Positions 1,422-6,325 of a stretch of DNA of 6,325 bases are shown here, one piece after another (position 1 is the first letter of the stretch; the number at the start of each line of letters is the position of its first letter). This DNA comes from a virus. Its lineage: Duplodnaviria > Heunggongvirae > Uroviricota > Caudoviricetes. The position numbers and the translations under genes were made by a program. The stretch is taken from IMG/VR virus record IMGVR_UViG_2579779052_000006; one strand, given 5' to 3'. Below the pieces are notes generated by a model. That model did not search any database. It saw nothing but the letters and a program-made list of their open reading frames with translations, and was not told where the DNA came from.

Positions 1422-3896
1422 TTAAAAATCAGCCTGATTCGGGATCAGTTTTTGCCAGATAACTGAAACGTATTTTGCCTGGTAACGGGCGTCATCAAGT
1501 GCATTATGGCGCTCACCTTCGAATGGAATAGCCGTTCTGGCATCGAAGTCTATGGCTTTCCCCAGCTCAACGATTGTGCGTACATCGCGATCGTTGTAGT
1601 AACGCCATGGGCAGGGGATCCCCTGCCGTTCGTATGAACGGCGCAAAATCGTGTTGTCGAAGTTGGCTCCATTTCCCCAGACCTGAACAAAAAATTCGCC
1701 GGAGTTTTCGTCGATAAATTCCCGCAATTGCAGCAGTGCATCATCTAACGGGATTTCATCGGTCAGAATGGCAGATTGCGCCTCCCGTGATTGCTTAAGC
1801 CACCATTTAATGGTGCCACGATCAATGACTCCGCCAGCAGTATCCATATCGATGGTCTTACTAAATTCCGGCCCCATATCTCCGGTTTGCGGATCGAAAA
1901 ATATTGCACCTATTGAGATAAGCGGGGCATCGGGATTTTTTCCCATGGTTTCAAGGTCGATCATCATGTGGTGCCACATTCTGCTGGTGGATGTGATAAC
2001 GTGATGACCGTTCATCGCAATTAAGGGATCTGCCGTCTCGCCAGTTTCACTATCGCTGGCGTGATCCTGAGCGCTACCAGCATTCTCCTTGTGTGGATGT
2101 TCAGCGCCTTCCATTTCCTTCGGATCATTTTCCTGAACTTCAACCTGATTCTCTTCATCGAATGTTTCCTGGTATGTTGCGTCACCCATCACCGCGCCAC
2201 AATCAGGGCAGTTGCCGCCACCGCTTTGACCGCAGGCGGTGCAGACTTTTTCCACTTCCTGTTGCGCCACTGGTTCAGGCTGTTTCGTTTCTGGCTCGTT
2301 TTGTAACGCATTTGGGCTGTTTTGTTCCGCTTTCTGGCCGTTCTGTTCCGTTTCTTGCTGGTTCTGATTCACTGAATCGCGGGTTTCAATCCCCTTCACC
2401 CATTTCGGATCATTCGGGTCGCTAATCCCTGCAACAAATTCACCACGTGATACAGCAAGCAACTTATTGGCGTCAGGCTGGCTGATATTGGCTGCCTGCA
2501 TAATTTTGTTTACTTCGTCAGCGGTAACTTTTACCGGCTCTGGTTGTGCGATCGTGTCAGATGCACCAGTATTTTGTTGTGAACCTGAGTACGTGCCGTT
2601 TTTACGTGCGAAGTATTCCTCTTTTGTGATTTCCGTAGCTCCCAGGGCCAGTGCTTTTTCCAGACCAGAAAGTTTGTTTGCGCGACCGTATTTTTCGCCG
2701 TCCTTATCGGTGAAAAGGAAGTAGAACGGTCCCTCACGCTCTACAGATGGTTCGTCTTCCACTTCGCATTCGGTTTTTTCGTTGTCCGGCATTGCCGTTT
2801 CCACTGCATCAGTTTTTGGTACTGGTGACGGGAGAGTACCAGCTGTGCCCTGATTTGTTCCTTCGTCATCTTCAAACACGCCCTTGGTAGTCAGGTATTC
2901 AGTGATGTATTTGTTCAGTGCTACGGGATCTTTGTGAATGTCGATCGGACGCTCACGGACAAGGCCAAAAATAGTCTGACGGTCGTAGCGAACGGCATCG
3001 GGTTGTTTGCGCATTGATGCGGAAATGCGCTTCCAGTCTTCGCGATCTTTGTCGATAACTTCATTTTTTGCCCAGCGATGGATGCTGCCGTCAATGTTTC
3101 CGGTATCAATATCGCCAGGCCAGAGAGCGTAGGCCAGTTCTTCATCCAGCGTTTTCCATGTCTGCTTGTATTCGCGACAAATGGCGGCAGTGACTGGGTT
3201 GATTTTTCCTGCTGAGTTTTCAGTGTTCTGTTGATTGACTCTGGCGCTGGCGAGATCAACAACAGACGTGTATTTTCCAGTCTCTTTGCGCTCTGCGTCC
3301 TGCCGTTTTTTCCAGTTACGTAATTCAGCCTGAATTTCGGGCCATTTGGCACCCGGATTACATTTGTGTTTAACCCATCCGATAGCGAACAGTTTGCGTT
3401 CCGGATACATAGCGTTAATTTCAGGCGTTTTCATCAGTGCTTCAACGATATGCCCGTCAAAGGTAGCAACGTCTTCCTGCAGTAATTCCTGCGCGTCAAT
3501 CGCCATATCAACGGTGATGTTTTCACATGTACCGAACTTAACCAGGACCGCGTTCTGTACTTCAAGGGACAGCTTGTCAAAATTGACGTTCATCGGATCG
3601 GATTCTGGTTCGACCGGAATAAAGGAAGCGGATTCCTCATCCCAGCGGTTTTCCTGCATATATTCAGCATCCCAGGAATCGAGGGCAGGGCGGGGTATAC
3701 CGGGTTTATCCTCGCAAACAAGAAATTTATAAGCGCAGTCCTGAGCAGCCGGATAATGTTCCAGGAATTGCCAGTGAAATTTTGCGCGGGCGCGACGTTC
3801 ATCACCGGCTTCAATGGCAGTGGCTACAGCGACGGCACCTTCTTCCTTTATTGCCTGTTCGTCCGGAATGGCGGCGCAAATAAAGACTTTACTCAT
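1422..3896 (-). CDS. Large prophage exonuclease, 824 aa, with a C-terminal DnaQ-like DEDDh 3'-5' exonuclease domain; of the type usually annotated 'exodeoxyribonuclease VIII-like' (ExoD/YdfE-type) in lambdoid prophages
   Basis: Single 2.4-kb ORF with GAGG 11 nt upstream of the ATG at 3896..3894 and TAA stop at 1422..1424. The C-terminal ~190 aa carry the three DEDDh motifs: MMIDLETMG (Exo I, about 1950..1960), WGNGANFDNT (Exo II) and HNALDDARYQAKY (Exo III). A CxxC-x7-CxxC zinc-ribbon-like motif (CTACGQSGGGNCPDCG, about 2199..2243) and an acidic/Gln-rich linker precede it. The internal motif KLLAVSRGEFVAGISDPNDPKWVKG resembles, from memory, a conserved RecE-family segment. Position between the dicB module and xis matches the exo slot of Qin/DLP12-type prophages. 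Confidence 0.85.
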   Translation of the reverse strand: MSKVFICAAIPDEQAIKEEGAVAVATAIEAGDERRARAKFHWQFLEHYPAAQDCAYKFLVCEDKPGIPRPALDSWDAEYMQENRWDEESASFIPVEPESDPMNVNFDKLSLEVQNAVLVKFGTCENITVDMAIDAQELLQEDVATFDGHIVEALMKTPEINAMYPERKLFAIGWVKHKCNPGAKWPEIQAELRNWKKRQDAERKETGKYTSVVDLASARVNQQNTENSAGKINPVTAAICREYKQTWKTLDEELAYALWPGDIDTGNIDGSIHRWAKNEVIDKDREDWKRISASMRKQPDAVRYDRQTIFGLVRERPIDIHKDPVALNKYITEYLTTKGVFEDDEGTNQGTAGTLPSPVPKTDAVETAMPDNEKTECEVEDEPSVEREGPFYFLFTDKDGEKYGRANKLSGLEKALALGATEITKEEYFARKNGTYSGSQQNTGASDTIAQPEPVKVTADEVNKIMQAANISQPDANKLLAVSRGEFVAGISDPNDPKWVKGIETRDSVNQNQQETEQNGQKAEQNSPNALQNEPETKQPEPVAQQEVEKVCTACGQSGGGNCPDCGAVMGDATYQETFDEENQVEVQENDPKEMEGAEHPHKENAGSAQDHASDSETGETADPLIAMNGHHVITSTSRMWHHMMIDLETMGKNPDAPLISIGAIFFDPQTGDMGPEFSKTIDMDTAGGVIDRGTIKWWLKQSREAQSAILTDEIPLDDALLQLREFIDENSGEFFVQVWGNGANFDNTILRRSYERQGIPCPWRYYNDRDVRTIVELGKAIDFDARTAIPFEGERHNALDDARYQAKYVSVIWQKLIPNQADF

Positions 3897-3991: not shown

Positions 3992-4180
3992 TTATCCAGC
4001 CGGTGTTTCGTTATTCAGGTACAGCGATACTTTTTTTAGCGGGAGGCATTCACCAGAAATTTTTTGCTCGTCTCTTGCCTGGAGGCAGGATTCTTTACTT
4101 GCATAAATTCCGGTAATCACATTCTGTGATTCACCCGTTATAAGAAAAACCGTCATCATCAGTGCAAATGCTGAAGTCAT
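3992..4180 (-). CDS. ydfD: YdfD-like small lysis protein, 62 aa, with N-terminal hydrophobic segment
   Basis: 62-aa ORF with hydrophobic N-terminus (MTSAFALMMTVFLITG), similar in length and composition to E. coli Qin YdfD (63 aa) as I recall it. GGAG sits 7 nt upstream of the ATG at 4180..4178, and the start overlaps the dicB stop (ATGA at 4177..4180), indicating translational coupling. Confidence 0.7.
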   Translation of the reverse strand: MTSAFALMMTVFLITGESQNVITGIYASKESCLQARDEQKISGECLPLKKVSLYLNNETPAG

Positions 4181-4365
4181 TGACGTTCTCCGAAAATACC
4201 AAGTTCAAGAAGAGCAATTCGGGAAAGTATGGAATTATCATTGAGCAGATAAGGCTCATATTTCCTCATATTAATGGCATCTTCAGTAAACTCCCGGTTA
4301 CTGAGCAGAACACCAATATCAAAACAACCTTCAGACGTATTAACGTTTGGTAATAACGTTTCCAT
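4177..4365 (-). CDS. dicB: DicB cell-division inhibitor (MinC-activating), 62 aa
   Basis: Translation METLLPNVNTSEGCFDIGV...FTEDAIN.RK... matches the recalled N-terminus of E. coli DicB (62 aa). GAGGA lies 7 nt upstream of the ATG at 4365..4363. Located directly downstream of the DicF sRNA on the same strand, as in the Qin dicB operon. Confidence 0.82.
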   Translation of the reverse strand: METLLPNVNTSEGCFDIGVLLSNREFTEDAINMRKYEPYLLNDNSILSRIALLELGIFGERQ

Positions 4366-4543: not shown

Positions 4544-4586
4544 AAAAAGGGCGGCAGAGCAGTCACGGAGTAAAACTGATACCGCC
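4544..4586 (-). terminator. Intrinsic terminator forming the DicF 3' end
   Basis: On the minus strand, GGCGG (4586..4582) can pair with CCGCC (4554..4550), followed by a TTTTT run (4548..4544). The exact stem register was not folded. Confidence 0.5.
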
Positions 4587-4601
4587 AAATGTCACCAGAA
4601 A
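4544..4601 (-). ncRNA. dicF: DicF small regulatory RNA (Hfq-dependent antisense sRNA that targets ftsZ and other mRNAs)
   Basis: Minus-strand sequence TTTCTGGTGACATTTGGCGGTATCAGTTTTACTCCGTGACTGCTCTGCCGCCCTTTTT is near-identical to the E. coli K-12 DicF sequence as I recall it, apparently differing by one base (GACATTTGG here, GACGTTTGG recalled). It ends in a GC-rich stem plus U5 and sits between the upstream operon genes and dicB. Confidence 0.8.
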
Positions 4602-4936
4602 ATTGATAACAGAGGGCGTTGTAGCGGGGTTGTCACTTAAGCGTATGGTCAACCTGACAACCCGGTGCATTTTCTGGAGCAATGGAGGAAACCCCAGCCA
4701 TACTTACCGCCGCGCCATTTCGCGGAGTGCCACAACCGGAAGCGCACGGTCGAACTAAATTTAACGACACCGTACAGAGAGACCAATTTCGCCGTGCGCT
4801 TTCGCGTTATGCCCTGACTTTTCAGGGACATATCCTTTCAGTAAGCTGTCAGTGCCGGATGCTCACCCGTGTCCGGCGCACGCACTCCACCTGACCCGTG
4901 GAGAACTCCTTAATTACCAACCCTCAGGAGGGTGAA

Positions 4937-5215
4937 ATGGATAAAAAGCAAATTGAGGCCCTGCAATCTATTATTGAAGAACAAGATGAAGCTATCAGGA
5001 TTCTTTCATATCGCACTGATATGATACTAAATATGCTTTCTGCATTAACGGCTGCGCTTGGTGGTACAAAAACAAACGTATACCGCGAAGTTGTTATTCA
5101 ACAGATAGATAAATTTGAAAAAACCATACCAGGTATTAATGCTCATCTTGCAGAACAAGAGAAAGACCATGCTCTTATGGCAATTTCTTCAGTAGCTCTC
5201 CCGAAAGTTGAGTAG
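4937..5215 (+). CDS. Hypothetical 92-aa protein, the only plus-strand gene, embedded antisense in the dicB-type operon
   Basis: Strong Shine-Dalgarno AGGAGGG (4926..4932) about 5 nt before the ATG at 4937; open frame to TAG at 5213..5215. The track ORF begins at an upstream GTG (4898) with no SD. The product (MDKKQIEALQSIIEEQDEAIRIL...) is predicted helical at the N-terminus and is not recognised. The region is AT-rich, where long open frames are less likely by chance. Confidence 0.45.
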   Translation: MDKKQIEALQSIIEEQDEAIRILSYRTDMILNMLSALTAALGGTKTNVYREVVIQQIDKFEKTIPGINAHLAEQEKDHALMAISSVALPKVE

Positions 5216-5588
5216 TTTTAATTGTTGTTTTGAAATAATCACTGCTTTCACATTTGAGTGATTTCATGGCAATCCAAATGCGGGCCTCTGTGCCTGCATT
5301 TGGTTCCAGTTGCTGTAGACGTTTTGCGTCTTCCAAAAGTAAGGCGATAATGTGTTTCAGCTTCTCATCATTTGCTTGATTCTTGTTTTCAGGCGAATTC
5401 TGTCCGCCGAATAGGCGCTTCTCTTCATACAGACCTATAAAGGCACGACGCACGTTACCGGATATAGTATCGATGGTTTCCTTTTCTACGGTACTCAGGT
5501 CAAGAGTCGCCAGTTGAGAGCGAACCACATTCGATGCCATTTCCTGGAATGGTACTGGTAAATCTTTAAATTCCATCGTCAACCTCAT
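5175..5588 (-). CDS. Hypothetical 137-aa protein, second gene of the operon
   Basis: ORF start ATG overlaps the stop of the upstream small gene (TGATG at 5588). An alternative start four codons in (MEFKDL..., ATG 5576..5574) has GAGG 6 nt upstream. Product not recognised; the N-terminal ~40 aa may correspond to a YdfB/YdaG-like small protein, which I cannot verify. The 3' end overlaps the convergent plus-strand ORF by 41 bp. Confidence 0.55.
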   Translation of the reverse strand: MRLTMEFKDLPVPFQEMASNVVRSQLATLDLSTVEKETIDTISGNVRRAFIGLYEEKRLFGGQNSPENKNQANDEKLKHIIALLLEDAKRLQQLEPNAGTEARIWIAMKSLKCESSDYFKTTIKTTQLSGELLKKLP

Positions 5589-5740
5589 CAGTCAGTGTTT
5601 CTGGTTAACCAGCGACGCGCGCCAGCTTCAGTTTTAAACGTTTTGCTTCTGGTATACGTCATCGCGGTGAACGTACCGTCCTGGTTGGGGAACACGCCAC
5701 ATACCAGAGATTCGCTGTTGCCAAGATCGATAGTATCCAT
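5588..5740 (-). CDS. Small YdfA/YdaF-like (DUF1391-type) prophage protein, 50 aa, first gene of the dicB-type operon
   Basis: Internal ATG at 5740..5738 with GAGG 5 nt upstream gives a 50-aa product (MDTIDLGNSESLVCGVFPNQDGTFTAMTYTRSKTFKTEAGARRWLTRNTD). This matches the size and, from memory, the sequence character of E. coli YdfA/YdaF (51 aa). The longest ORF instead starts at 5821 (77 aa), also with a GAGG 9 nt upstream, so the start is ambiguous. Confidence 0.6.
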   Translation of the reverse strand: MDTIDLGNSESLVCGVFPNQDGTFTAMTYTRSKTFKTEAGARRWLTRNTD

Positions 5741-5922: not shown

Positions 5923-5963
5923 AGGATACCCATAGGTATTTAAAAAGTAAATACCCATGGGTA
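5923..5963 (-). promoter_or_regulatory. Putative repressor-controlled promoter of the dicB-type operon: two tandem palindromic operator-like sites overlapping candidate -10 and -35 elements
   Basis: ATACCCATAGGTAT (5926..5939) and ATACCCATGGGTA (5951..5963; core TACCCATGGGTA is a perfect 12-bp palindrome) lie 25 bp centre to centre. On the minus strand a candidate -35 TTTACT (5951..5946) and -10 TATCCT (5928..5923) with a 17-bp spacer overlap the two sites. The region is upstream of the first operon gene. Hexamers are moderate matches only. Confidence 0.4.
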
Positions 5964-6007
5964 AATTTTTGCGGTGTCTTAACTGGTGACTAGTTGTTTG
6001 GTGAGCT

Positions 6008-6030
6008 GGTAATGACTCCAACTTATTGAT
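6008..6030. repeat. IS1 terminal inverted repeat (about 23 bp, the insB-proximal end)
   Basis: GGTAATGACTCCAACTTATTGAT matches the canonical IS1 terminal repeat. Confidence 0.8.
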
Positions 6031-6325
6031 AGTGTTTTATGTTCAGATAATGCCCGATGACTTTGTCATGCAGCTCCACCGATTTTGAGAACGACAGCGA
6101 CTTCCGTCCCAGCCGTGCCAGGTGCTGCCTCAGATTCAGGTTATGCCGCTCAATTCGCTGCGTATATCGCTTGCTGATTACGTGCAGCTTTCCCTTCAGG
6201 CGGGATTCATACAGCGGCCAGCCATCCGTCATCCATATCACCACGTCAAAGGGTGACAGCAGGCTCATAAGACGCCCCAGCGTCGCCATAGTGCGTTCAC
6301 CGAATACGTGCGCAACAACCGTCTT
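6023..6325 (-). CDS. insB: IS1 transposase InsB, C-terminal part (N-terminus lies beyond the window end)
   Basis: Translation ...[88 protein letters not shown] matches the recalled InsB C-terminus. The reading frame stays open to the window edge. Confidence 0.9.

Follow-up and report, generated by a model that had tools for sequence, protein, structure and literature searches.

In the early-left operons of lambda, P22, and Rac, sieB is an opposite-strand gene near the immunity region. In lambda, sieB (plus strand, 34482-35036) abuts N (minus strand, 35037-35438) inside the pL operon, in Rac sieB (plus) overlaps the DUF1391 gene ydaF (minus) by 4 bp, and in e14 ymfI (plus) and ymfJ (minus) converge with a 63-bp 3' overlap next to the repressor. 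Both ymfI-ymfJ and sieB-ydaF are listed by ExcludonFinder as convergent excludons in K-12 RNA sequencing data (PMC12288877), during SOS induction ymfJ comes up late, along with further early genes of e14, and ymfI responds weakly (PMC11002266), and sieB is expressed from the prophage (PMC10461980). The region from repressor to N is a mosaic hotspot for accessory loci, antisense placement being typical (Owen et al., PMC7067206), and in prophage BTP1 an antisense RNA mediates exclusion (PMC7067206). Here, we describe a locus of this layout in IMG/VR record IMGVR_UViG_2579779052_000006, a stretch of 6,325 nucleotides (nt) hereafter called the window, which is the left arm of a Qin/Rac-like lambdoid prophage of Escherichia coli whose intact relatives have ompW adjoining. 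Inside its minus-strand dicB-type operon lies a plus-strand gene of 92 amino acids (aa), preceded by a structured leader and converging with a 133-aa operon gene. A first-pass annotation made from the letters alone had implicitly taken an antisense gene within this operon as an anomaly, a premise that does not hold given the equally convergent pairs of lambda, Rac, and e14.

The window and K-12 Qin have in common, in the same order, homologous ydfA-like, dicF, dicB, and ydfD-like genes, and the noncoding DNA that separates ydfC from dicF in Qin is homologous as well. In Qin, only the same-strand genes ydfA-ydfB-ydfC precede dicF. Qin differs in carrying ydfB and ydfC where the window has the 133-aa gene and the antisense 92-aa gene, and its leader is not followed by a plus-strand open reading frame (ORF). 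Alignment to Qin showed homology through ydfA, a break at ~5587, and resumption at ~4924; therefore, the stretch at 4925-5587, hereafter the cassette, replaces ydfB-ydfC. The content of guanine and cytosine (GC) was 0.409 for the cassette and 0.373 for the plus ORF, compared with 0.54 for the neighboring 4601-4922 and 0.476 for the whole window. Windowed GC reproduced the drop first noticed by eye, from 0.57 at 4701-4900 to 0.37-0.39 at 4901-5300. Alignment and composition thus support the earlier suggestion that the cassette is separately acquired, AT-rich DNA. The two convergent ORFs, their 41-bp 3' overlap (5175-5215), and the AGGAGGG ribosome-binding site (4926-4932) 5' of the plus-strand ATG all lie where they had first been placed.

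The 92-aa plus-strand gene (4937-5215; WP_000358769.1 in the Prokaryotic Genome Annotation Pipeline, PGAP) is a real, conserved gene. Its frame is open over 4898-5215, which would give 105 aa from a GTG start, the ATG at 4937 giving 92 aa. PGAP calls both ORFs in 124-127 complete E. coli genomes, and the plus ORF is carried by 127 of the 5426 complete genomes; enteropathogenic E. coli (EPEC) E2348/69, AR_0013, and CE10 are among the carriers. The protein matched the profile of phrog_18692, of category "unknown function", over its full length (E 8e-63, residues 1-92 against positions 1-92 of 92). Compared with Salmonella homologs (72-74% identity), the ratio of nonsynonymous to synonymous substitution (dN/dS) was 0.17-0.25, and it was 0.08 between two Salmonella versions, with dS across comparisons of 0.67-0.89. 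Differences at codon positions 1/2/3 numbered 9/0/28 between two related prophages (labeled L004 and L010 here, other relatives being labeled likewise) and 20/11/32 between the window and L004. The stretch 4937-5174 shares no bases with another long frame, and this constraint therefore belongs to the plus frame. A length of 90-93 aa was kept in seven family members at 30-74% identity, and the C-terminal S-V/S-A-L-P motif was kept in L017, where no minus-strand gene overlaps.

The AlphaFold 2 model of the protein comprised three helices (pLDDT, the predicted local distance difference test score, 69), and hydropathy, with KD19 peaking at 0.9-1.2, revealed no transmembrane segment. The conserved central segment had been considered as a membrane-spanning helix, but its hydropathy was too low and the idea was rejected. 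The protein is hence modeled as an acidic, soluble three-helix bundle. Foldseek of the model against the PDB returned a generic three-helix bundle (top hit ribosomal protein bS20, E 0.16, not meaningful), a PDB profile search gave no match, and Pfam, NCBIfam, and PADLOC found nothing above threshold for either protein or any family member. The papers surveyed that mention ymfI, ymfJ, sieB, or dicBF give no description of the family or of the leader. The first-pass annotation had recognized neither protein; this still stands for the plus-strand product (PHROG 18692, with no Pfam or fold match), and the minus-strand product can now be read as an N-terminal module joined to a YmfJ core (phrog_1363).

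The family (PHROG 18692) is tiny. A word-indexed search of 5.8 billion clusters recovered 22 family proteins, all named ones being from E. coli or Salmonella, and an exhaustive profile search of 1.84 billion representatives recovered 15, including four more distant full-length members. Family members occur in Salmonella RecE/RecT/YdaE prophages with no dicB called and no DicF found, in a P2-like prophage (L016) that also encodes Cox, an integrase, and a C-type repressor, in two lambdoids, directly beside CI/S24-type repressors (L019 and L020), and in an integrase island with a TacA-like gene and a restriction-modification system (L017). In all contexts, the gene lies near the immunity or integration module, and its orientation is either opposite to that of the early operon or repressor or convergent with the integrase. 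Homologs are thus present in Salmonella, P2-like, and other elements that lack a called dicB and a DicF match; the family is therefore not tied to dicF/dicB, and the proposal of a regulator specific to that module is not supported. In two Salmonella contigs (L008 6200-6318), the 92-aa homolog diverges after about residue 74 and the minus-strand partner is missing, which looks like a deletion or recombination scar and not an independent partner-free form.

Upstream of the plus gene, the structured leader (plus strand, 4853-4936) was identified by folding, covariation, and a covariance model. Hairpin 1 is formed by 4853-4862 paired with 4869-4878 (GCCGGA...TCCGGC) and hairpin 2 by 4885-4890 paired with 4898-4903, followed by an anti-Shine-Dalgarno box (CTCCT, 4906-4910) that pairs with the core of the Shine-Dalgarno sequence (SD; AGGAG, 4926-4930). 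Three mutually compensatory versions of hairpin 2 were found (CTCCAC/GTGGAG, CCACACG/CGTGTTGG, and CCCAAC/GTTGGG), the CUCC(A/U) box pairs with the SD (U/A)GGAG across leader variants, and helix 1 retains three conserved G.U pairs that are possible on the plus strand only. Over nine contexts, pairing held in 83.6% of cells compared with ~40% for slid partners, and in seven pairs both bases had changed, a count attained by 3 of 500 shuffles. The plus-strand leader RNA folded at -38 kcal/mol (z -4.2, 0 of 200 shuffles; z -5.4 in L016), whereas the minus strand gave z -0.55, and the structure is therefore plus-strand specific. For the same reason, the alternative that the hairpins form the 3' structure of the minus-strand ydfABC RNA was rejected, the minus-strand fold being no better than shuffled sequence.

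The covariance model placed a leader upstream of every family member, with weak but correctly placed matches in L017 and L020, which were outside the training set. It found none upstream of sieB (Rac and lambda) or ymfI, and the idea that the leader is a general feature of antisense morons (accessory genes of prophages) was rejected on that result. A scan of the leader region against Rfam at E<=10 gave no match. The leader was present in 3360 of 5426 complete E. coli genomes (~62%), in up to five copies each, and was unannotated in every sampled hit; further copies were located at 3045-3135 of L002 (minus strand), 164-256 of L016, and 1501-1586 of L021. In the P2-like L016, the leader was far better conserved than its ORF, hairpin 1 being near-identical and the protein 44% identical.

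A TAnnnT hexamer occurs 6-8 nt 5' of hairpin 1 in four unrelated flank families. The versions in L016 (TGtTATTAT) and L010 (TAAAAT) are strong, L008 has TATTAA, and the -10-like hexamer of the window (TAAGCT), which ends 6 nt before hairpin 1, is weak. This placement suggests that plus transcripts start at the base of hairpin 1. A strict sigma-70 scan of the window found no plus-strand promoter or terminator, and a relaxed scan gave weak candidates only, the candidate promoter being at 4819-4847 (plus strand; TTTTCA, 17-nt spacer, TAAGCT). In L016 and L019, plus-strand intrinsic terminators lie 20-35 nt past the stop codon of the family gene. Judging from the structured leader and from the strong -10 elements and terminators of distant relatives, the plus gene appears to behave as its own transcription unit. 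The relatives show signals of the kind expected of an opposite-strand gene in need of its own promoter, the window itself offering a weak candidate. Two further observations concern the region 5' of the leader. A hairpin of the window at 4811-4829 (GCCCTGACTTTTCAGGGA), which overlaps the -35 of the candidate plus-strand promoter, has conserved counterparts in K-12 Qin, FORC_029, and Salmonella L004, and we take it to resemble a boxB-type stem-loop. In L008 (5361-5720, 119 aa) and L013 (1506-1826, called 106 aa), another plus-strand gene, 90% identical between the two, is found 5' of the leader; this additional gene occurs in some Salmonella and E. coli prophages, and in phages of the L008/L013 type plus-strand transcription may enter the leader from further upstream.

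Behind the leader, the plus-gene slot (~4925-5167 within the cassette) is independently swappable. In FORC_029, an unrelated 57-aa plus ORF (L012 2706-2879) occupies the slot beside an 89%-identical minus-strand gene, with breakpoints at the leader and ~7 nt past the stop of the minus-strand gene. In O157:H7, an unrelated 77-aa ORF (L021 1587-1820, Z866) stands behind the leader with an identical SD, and in K-12 Qin-type loci the leader is kept with no plus ORF behind it. The 77-aa and 57-aa ORFs are annotated as hypothetical proteins. All three alternative slot ORFs have a GC content of 36-38%. The plus ORF thus differs in composition from its flanks and is present in some related prophages and absent from others, as is expected of a moron.

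Given these data, we consider it probable that the plus ORF is an accessory (moron) gene expressed in the lysogen, which occupies a swappable plus-strand slot of the early-left operon behind a conserved leader unit. In such a scheme, a conserved plus-strand unit consisting of a weak promoter-like hexamer, the two-hairpin leader, and the CUCC box pairing with its own SD would serve the slot, and the AT-rich ORFs behind it would change with the strain (92 aa in the window, 77 aa in O157:H7, 57 aa in FORC_029, and none in K-12). In the repressed prophage, the plus unit alone would be transcribed and its translation would be gated by the SD-sequestering leader. Upon firing of the early-left promoter, transcription toward dicF-dicB would run antisense through the plus gene, and the two programs would exclude each other by collision and formation of double-stranded RNA in an excludon-like manner, with the plus gene being shut off. 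In K-12, processing of a transcript initiated at dicBp yields DicF, no internal promoter having been found. Because the operon of the window is homologous to that of K-12, the precursor of its DicF must likewise traverse the plus gene in antisense, and the interference with the operon transcript anticipated in the first-pass annotation would follow from this homology. In L019, a strong minus-strand promoter (TTGACA-17-GATTAT with TG) with pL-like placement is directed antisense through the family gene.

As for the product, a role as a lysogen-expressed accessory, for example in superinfection exclusion or host protection, appears most likely by analogy with the position of sieB, and the superinfection-exclusion or anti-defense module that had been listed among the possible roles remains our best guess by position. 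A bolder proposal is that the leader is a dedicated riboregulatory platform gating the translation of interchangeable cargo genes set antisense in the early-left operon and that the 92-aa family is a new lysogen exclusion or defense protein switched off by convergent early-left transcription upon induction, which we regard as speculative and unlikely. Several points weigh against an accessory gene served by the leader. The covariation is based on nine related sequences from which the tested structure was itself derived. Approximately 3,200 genomes have the leader without the 92-aa ORF, and the leader may have a role independent of any plus ORF. The candidate promoter of the window is weak, matching at 7 of 12 positions, and no plus-strand intrinsic terminator follows the ORF there. 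A tblastn search of the family against 50,697 deposited phage genomes gave no match; given this absence, the family could reside mostly in defective prophages. Lastly, Pfam, NCBIfam, PADLOC, PDB sequence searches, and Foldseek were all without a functional match, and it is for this reason that the case for defense or exclusion is one of position.

Position alike prompts the alternative that the 92-aa protein is a lysis-lysogeny regulatory factor, such as an antirepressor or a protein that modulates early-operon expression, and not an accessory gene of benefit to the host. Every context adjoins an immunity or integration module, with the gene directly beside CI/S24-type repressors in L019 and L020, and a regulatory role would explain why it always lies within one to three genes of a repressor or integrase. 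A small, helical, acidic protein would also be in keeping with many protein-binding regulators, although no similarity to known regulators was found. An SOS-controlled antirepressor was sought specifically through a LexA box, which many antirepressors have, and none was found upstream of the plus ORF. Furthermore, the slot of close relatives holds unrelated ORFs or none, which fits dispensable cargo better than a regulator. We consider a regulatory factor possible but doubtful.

The leader raises a different alternative, namely that the plus transcript acts mainly as an antisense RNA damping leaky early-left expression, and hence the toxic DicF and DicB, with the protein being secondary. The obligatory antisense passage of the dicF precursor through the slot, the conservation of the leader DNA far beyond that of the ORF in L016, and the persistence of the leader in K-12-type loci lacking the ORF are all in line with such a function, for which the antisense exclusion RNA of BTP1 (PMC7067206) is a precedent. 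The protein frame, however, is under clear purifying selection, the unrelated slot ORFs keep a strong SD and an ATG, and family members are likewise present in elements with neither a called dicB nor a DicF match. An RNA acting on its own account is therefore improbable as the main function, and a protein-coding accessory gene remains the preferred reading.

A further alternative is that the two ORFs form a dedicated module, a toxin/antitoxin pair as had been suggested or a toxin/immunity pair. The maximal frame of the minus-strand gene spans 5175-5588 (137 aa), and the frame proposed in the first-pass annotation is correct. The start is not, in all likelihood: in place of the ATG at 5588, TGATG-coupled to the YdfA-like gene, the ATG at 5576 (5175-5576, minus strand, 133 aa; PGAP CDS WP_001339605.1) is likelier because GAGG lies 6 nt upstream, PGAP chooses it, and every PHROG match begins at residue 5. 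The protein matches phrog_1363 as well as separate N-half and C-half families. Its N-module (aa 1-62, nt 5391-5576) is present in 1357 of 5426 complete E. coli genomes and is shared with other proteins, among them a 135-aa protein of O157:H7 (80% identity) and a 211-aa protein of PapRG-04-4. The YmfJ-like core of ~40 aa (LKHVIALLLEDAKRLQQIEPNAGTEARI; aa 69-108, nt 5253-5372) is 75% identical to aa 2-41 of e14 YmfJ (E 3e-19), its DNA being 78% similar to ymfJ, and this C-module is found in 510 genomes. In overall architecture the protein departs from YmfJ: an N-module of 62 aa precedes the core, and the C-terminal tail bears no relation to the YmfJ one, the last 13 codons reading into the 3' end of the plus gene. 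Permissive BLASTP against YdfB, YdfC, and YdaG gave no match, leaving no similarity by which the protein could be a fused or extended form of any of them; there was likewise no similarity to SieB, and E fell below 1 only for RacC, a weak match (32%) obtained with a very small database. The minus ORF can therefore be classed with the ordinary early-left genes, its modular make-up combining a widespread N-module with a YmfJ core. An inverted repeat with a 12-bp stem (CCAAATGCGGGC...GCCTGCATTTGG, 5274-5303) encodes PNAGTEARIW, the best-conserved peptide of the core. The 61 nt that surround this repeat (5270-5330), ~60 nt beyond the stop of the plus ORF, fold on the plus strand at -23.9 kcal/mol, which could pause or stabilize the plus transcript or be a coincidence.

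Both ORFs are under purifying selection. In favor of a pair, E. coli and Salmonella (L004-L007 and L010) have the 41-bp overlap in common, and it is found again in the P2-like L016. The partners, however, differ, being the 133-aa mosaic, a 71-aa protein with the YmfJ core only in Salmonella, an unrelated 214-aa helix-turn-helix protein in L016, or none called. The overlap recurs because all partners share one antisense stop, which faces codons 80/81 of the plus ORF. A co-travelling peptide module in the conserved minus-frame tail was also considered and set aside, the C-terminal motif of the plus ORF, which is kept without a partner in L017, explaining that conservation. Conversely, the minus-strand gene of FORC_029 retains 89% identity, tail included, beside an unrelated plus ORF, and the N- and C-modules are found in 1357 and 510 genomes compared with 127 for the plus ORF. 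The one hint of such a module, a weak RelB-like NCBIfam hit (E 0.014), reached 15.6 bits against a cut-off of 50, and PADLOC and Pfam were negative for toxin/antitoxin families. The two ORFs are not an obligate pair, and because partners vary and the minus-strand gene persists with an unrelated plus ORF, a toxin/antitoxin-like module is disfavored and a dedicated pair of any kind quite improbable. Least credible of all is a chance antisense frame beside an ordinary operon gene, which the first-pass annotation had linked to a lack of conservation: the absence of a known domain, the AT-rich DNA, and the lack of a consensus promoter or terminator in the window would allow it, but the frame is conserved and under purifying selection in related prophages (dN/dS 0.08-0.25), keeps its length down to 30% identity, occurs independently in unrelated elements without an overlapping gene, and has a strong SD and a conserved leader.

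The other genes of the window listed here are all on the minus strand: an integrase (1-1131), an excisionase (1109-1357), an 824-aa exonuclease (1422-3896), a ydfD-like DUF1482 gene (3992-4180; Pfam E 1.5e-14), dicB (4177-4365; Pfam DicB E 6.4e-37), the DicF small RNA (4549-4600; Rfam RF00039, 77 bits against a gathering threshold of 48), and a YdfA-like DUF1391 gene (5588-5740; Pfam E 6.6e-27), the first gene of the dicB-type early-left operon. The YdfA-like gene is the 50-aa version given by PGAP coordinates and not the 77-aa maximal ORF, and its product is 88% identical to K-12 YdfA. The exonuclease, at the position of RecE, has an Rv2179c-like 3'-5' exoribonuclease-type domain at its C terminus (aa 643-814) and, unlike its Salmonella relatives, no Exonuc_VIII domain. 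Between the ydfA-like and repressor-like genes, a palindrome with a 16-bp stem (TACCCATGGGTA...TACCTATGGGTA, 5927-5963) was flagged as terminator-like in the scan, although its appearance is closer to that of two operator half-sites, paired, belonging to the early-left promoter. An IS1 end begins at 6008 (6008-6325), and the junction at 6007/6008 lies inside the stop codon of the 139-aa repressor-like gene of intact relatives (AR_0013 and E2348/69), so that the repressor C terminus of this prophage copy may be altered; the rest lies outside the window. In related prophages, toxin/antitoxin genes are inserted at differing points of the immunity and early-left regions (ParE/Phd, RelE/ParE, and HigB; L008 4032-4594, L012 3794-4275, and L023 2404-3068), which underlines how mosaic the region is.

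Antisense accessory genes beside prophage immunity regions, such as sieB and rexAB, have repeatedly proved to have exclusion or defense functions. Because the 92-aa family is uncharacterized, conserved, and found in that position, it is a reasonable candidate for a new function of this kind, and its carriage by well-studied strains such as EPEC E2348/69 makes it directly testable. The leader, shared by the unrelated ORFs that follow it, may be of greater importance. If functional, it would show prophages expressing and silencing interchangeable cargo from one regulatory platform, and since the DicF precursor must be transcribed through the slot, the slot would also bear on the control of the toxic DicF/DicB module.

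Compared with the described systems, the plus ORF shares with sieB its antisense position in an early-left operon and its convergence with an early gene. The two proteins are not alike: BLASTP found no similarity between the 92-aa protein and Rac SieB, SieB is 162 aa with hydrophobic stretches (judged by eye), whereas the 92-aa protein is acidic without a transmembrane segment, and the structured leader present at the plus ORF is missing upstream of sieB in Rac and lambda. The e14 locus shares the YmfJ core of its minus-strand gene (75% over 40 aa), which in the window is fused behind the extra N-module; no similarity was detected between YmfI (113 aa) and the 92-aa protein, for which homology to YmfI was accordingly rejected, and the leader is lacking at ymfI. 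The two ORFs overlap by 41 bp, and the operon transcript would have to cross the plus gene to reach dicF, which makes them a candidate excludon analogous to the pairs listed in K-12. Like rexAB and bstA among the morons of the repressor-to-N region, the plus gene is AT-rich, variably present, near a repressor, and antisense to lytic genes, with the differences that in the window its promoter is a weak candidate and no intrinsic terminator follows it, and that several unrelated ORFs share one structured leader and SD, an arrangement that, to our knowledge, has not been described for moron slots. An antisense gene in the early-left operon is thus a standard lambdoid layout of which the window provides a new example, and the shared structured leader serving a swappable cargo slot may be a new part.

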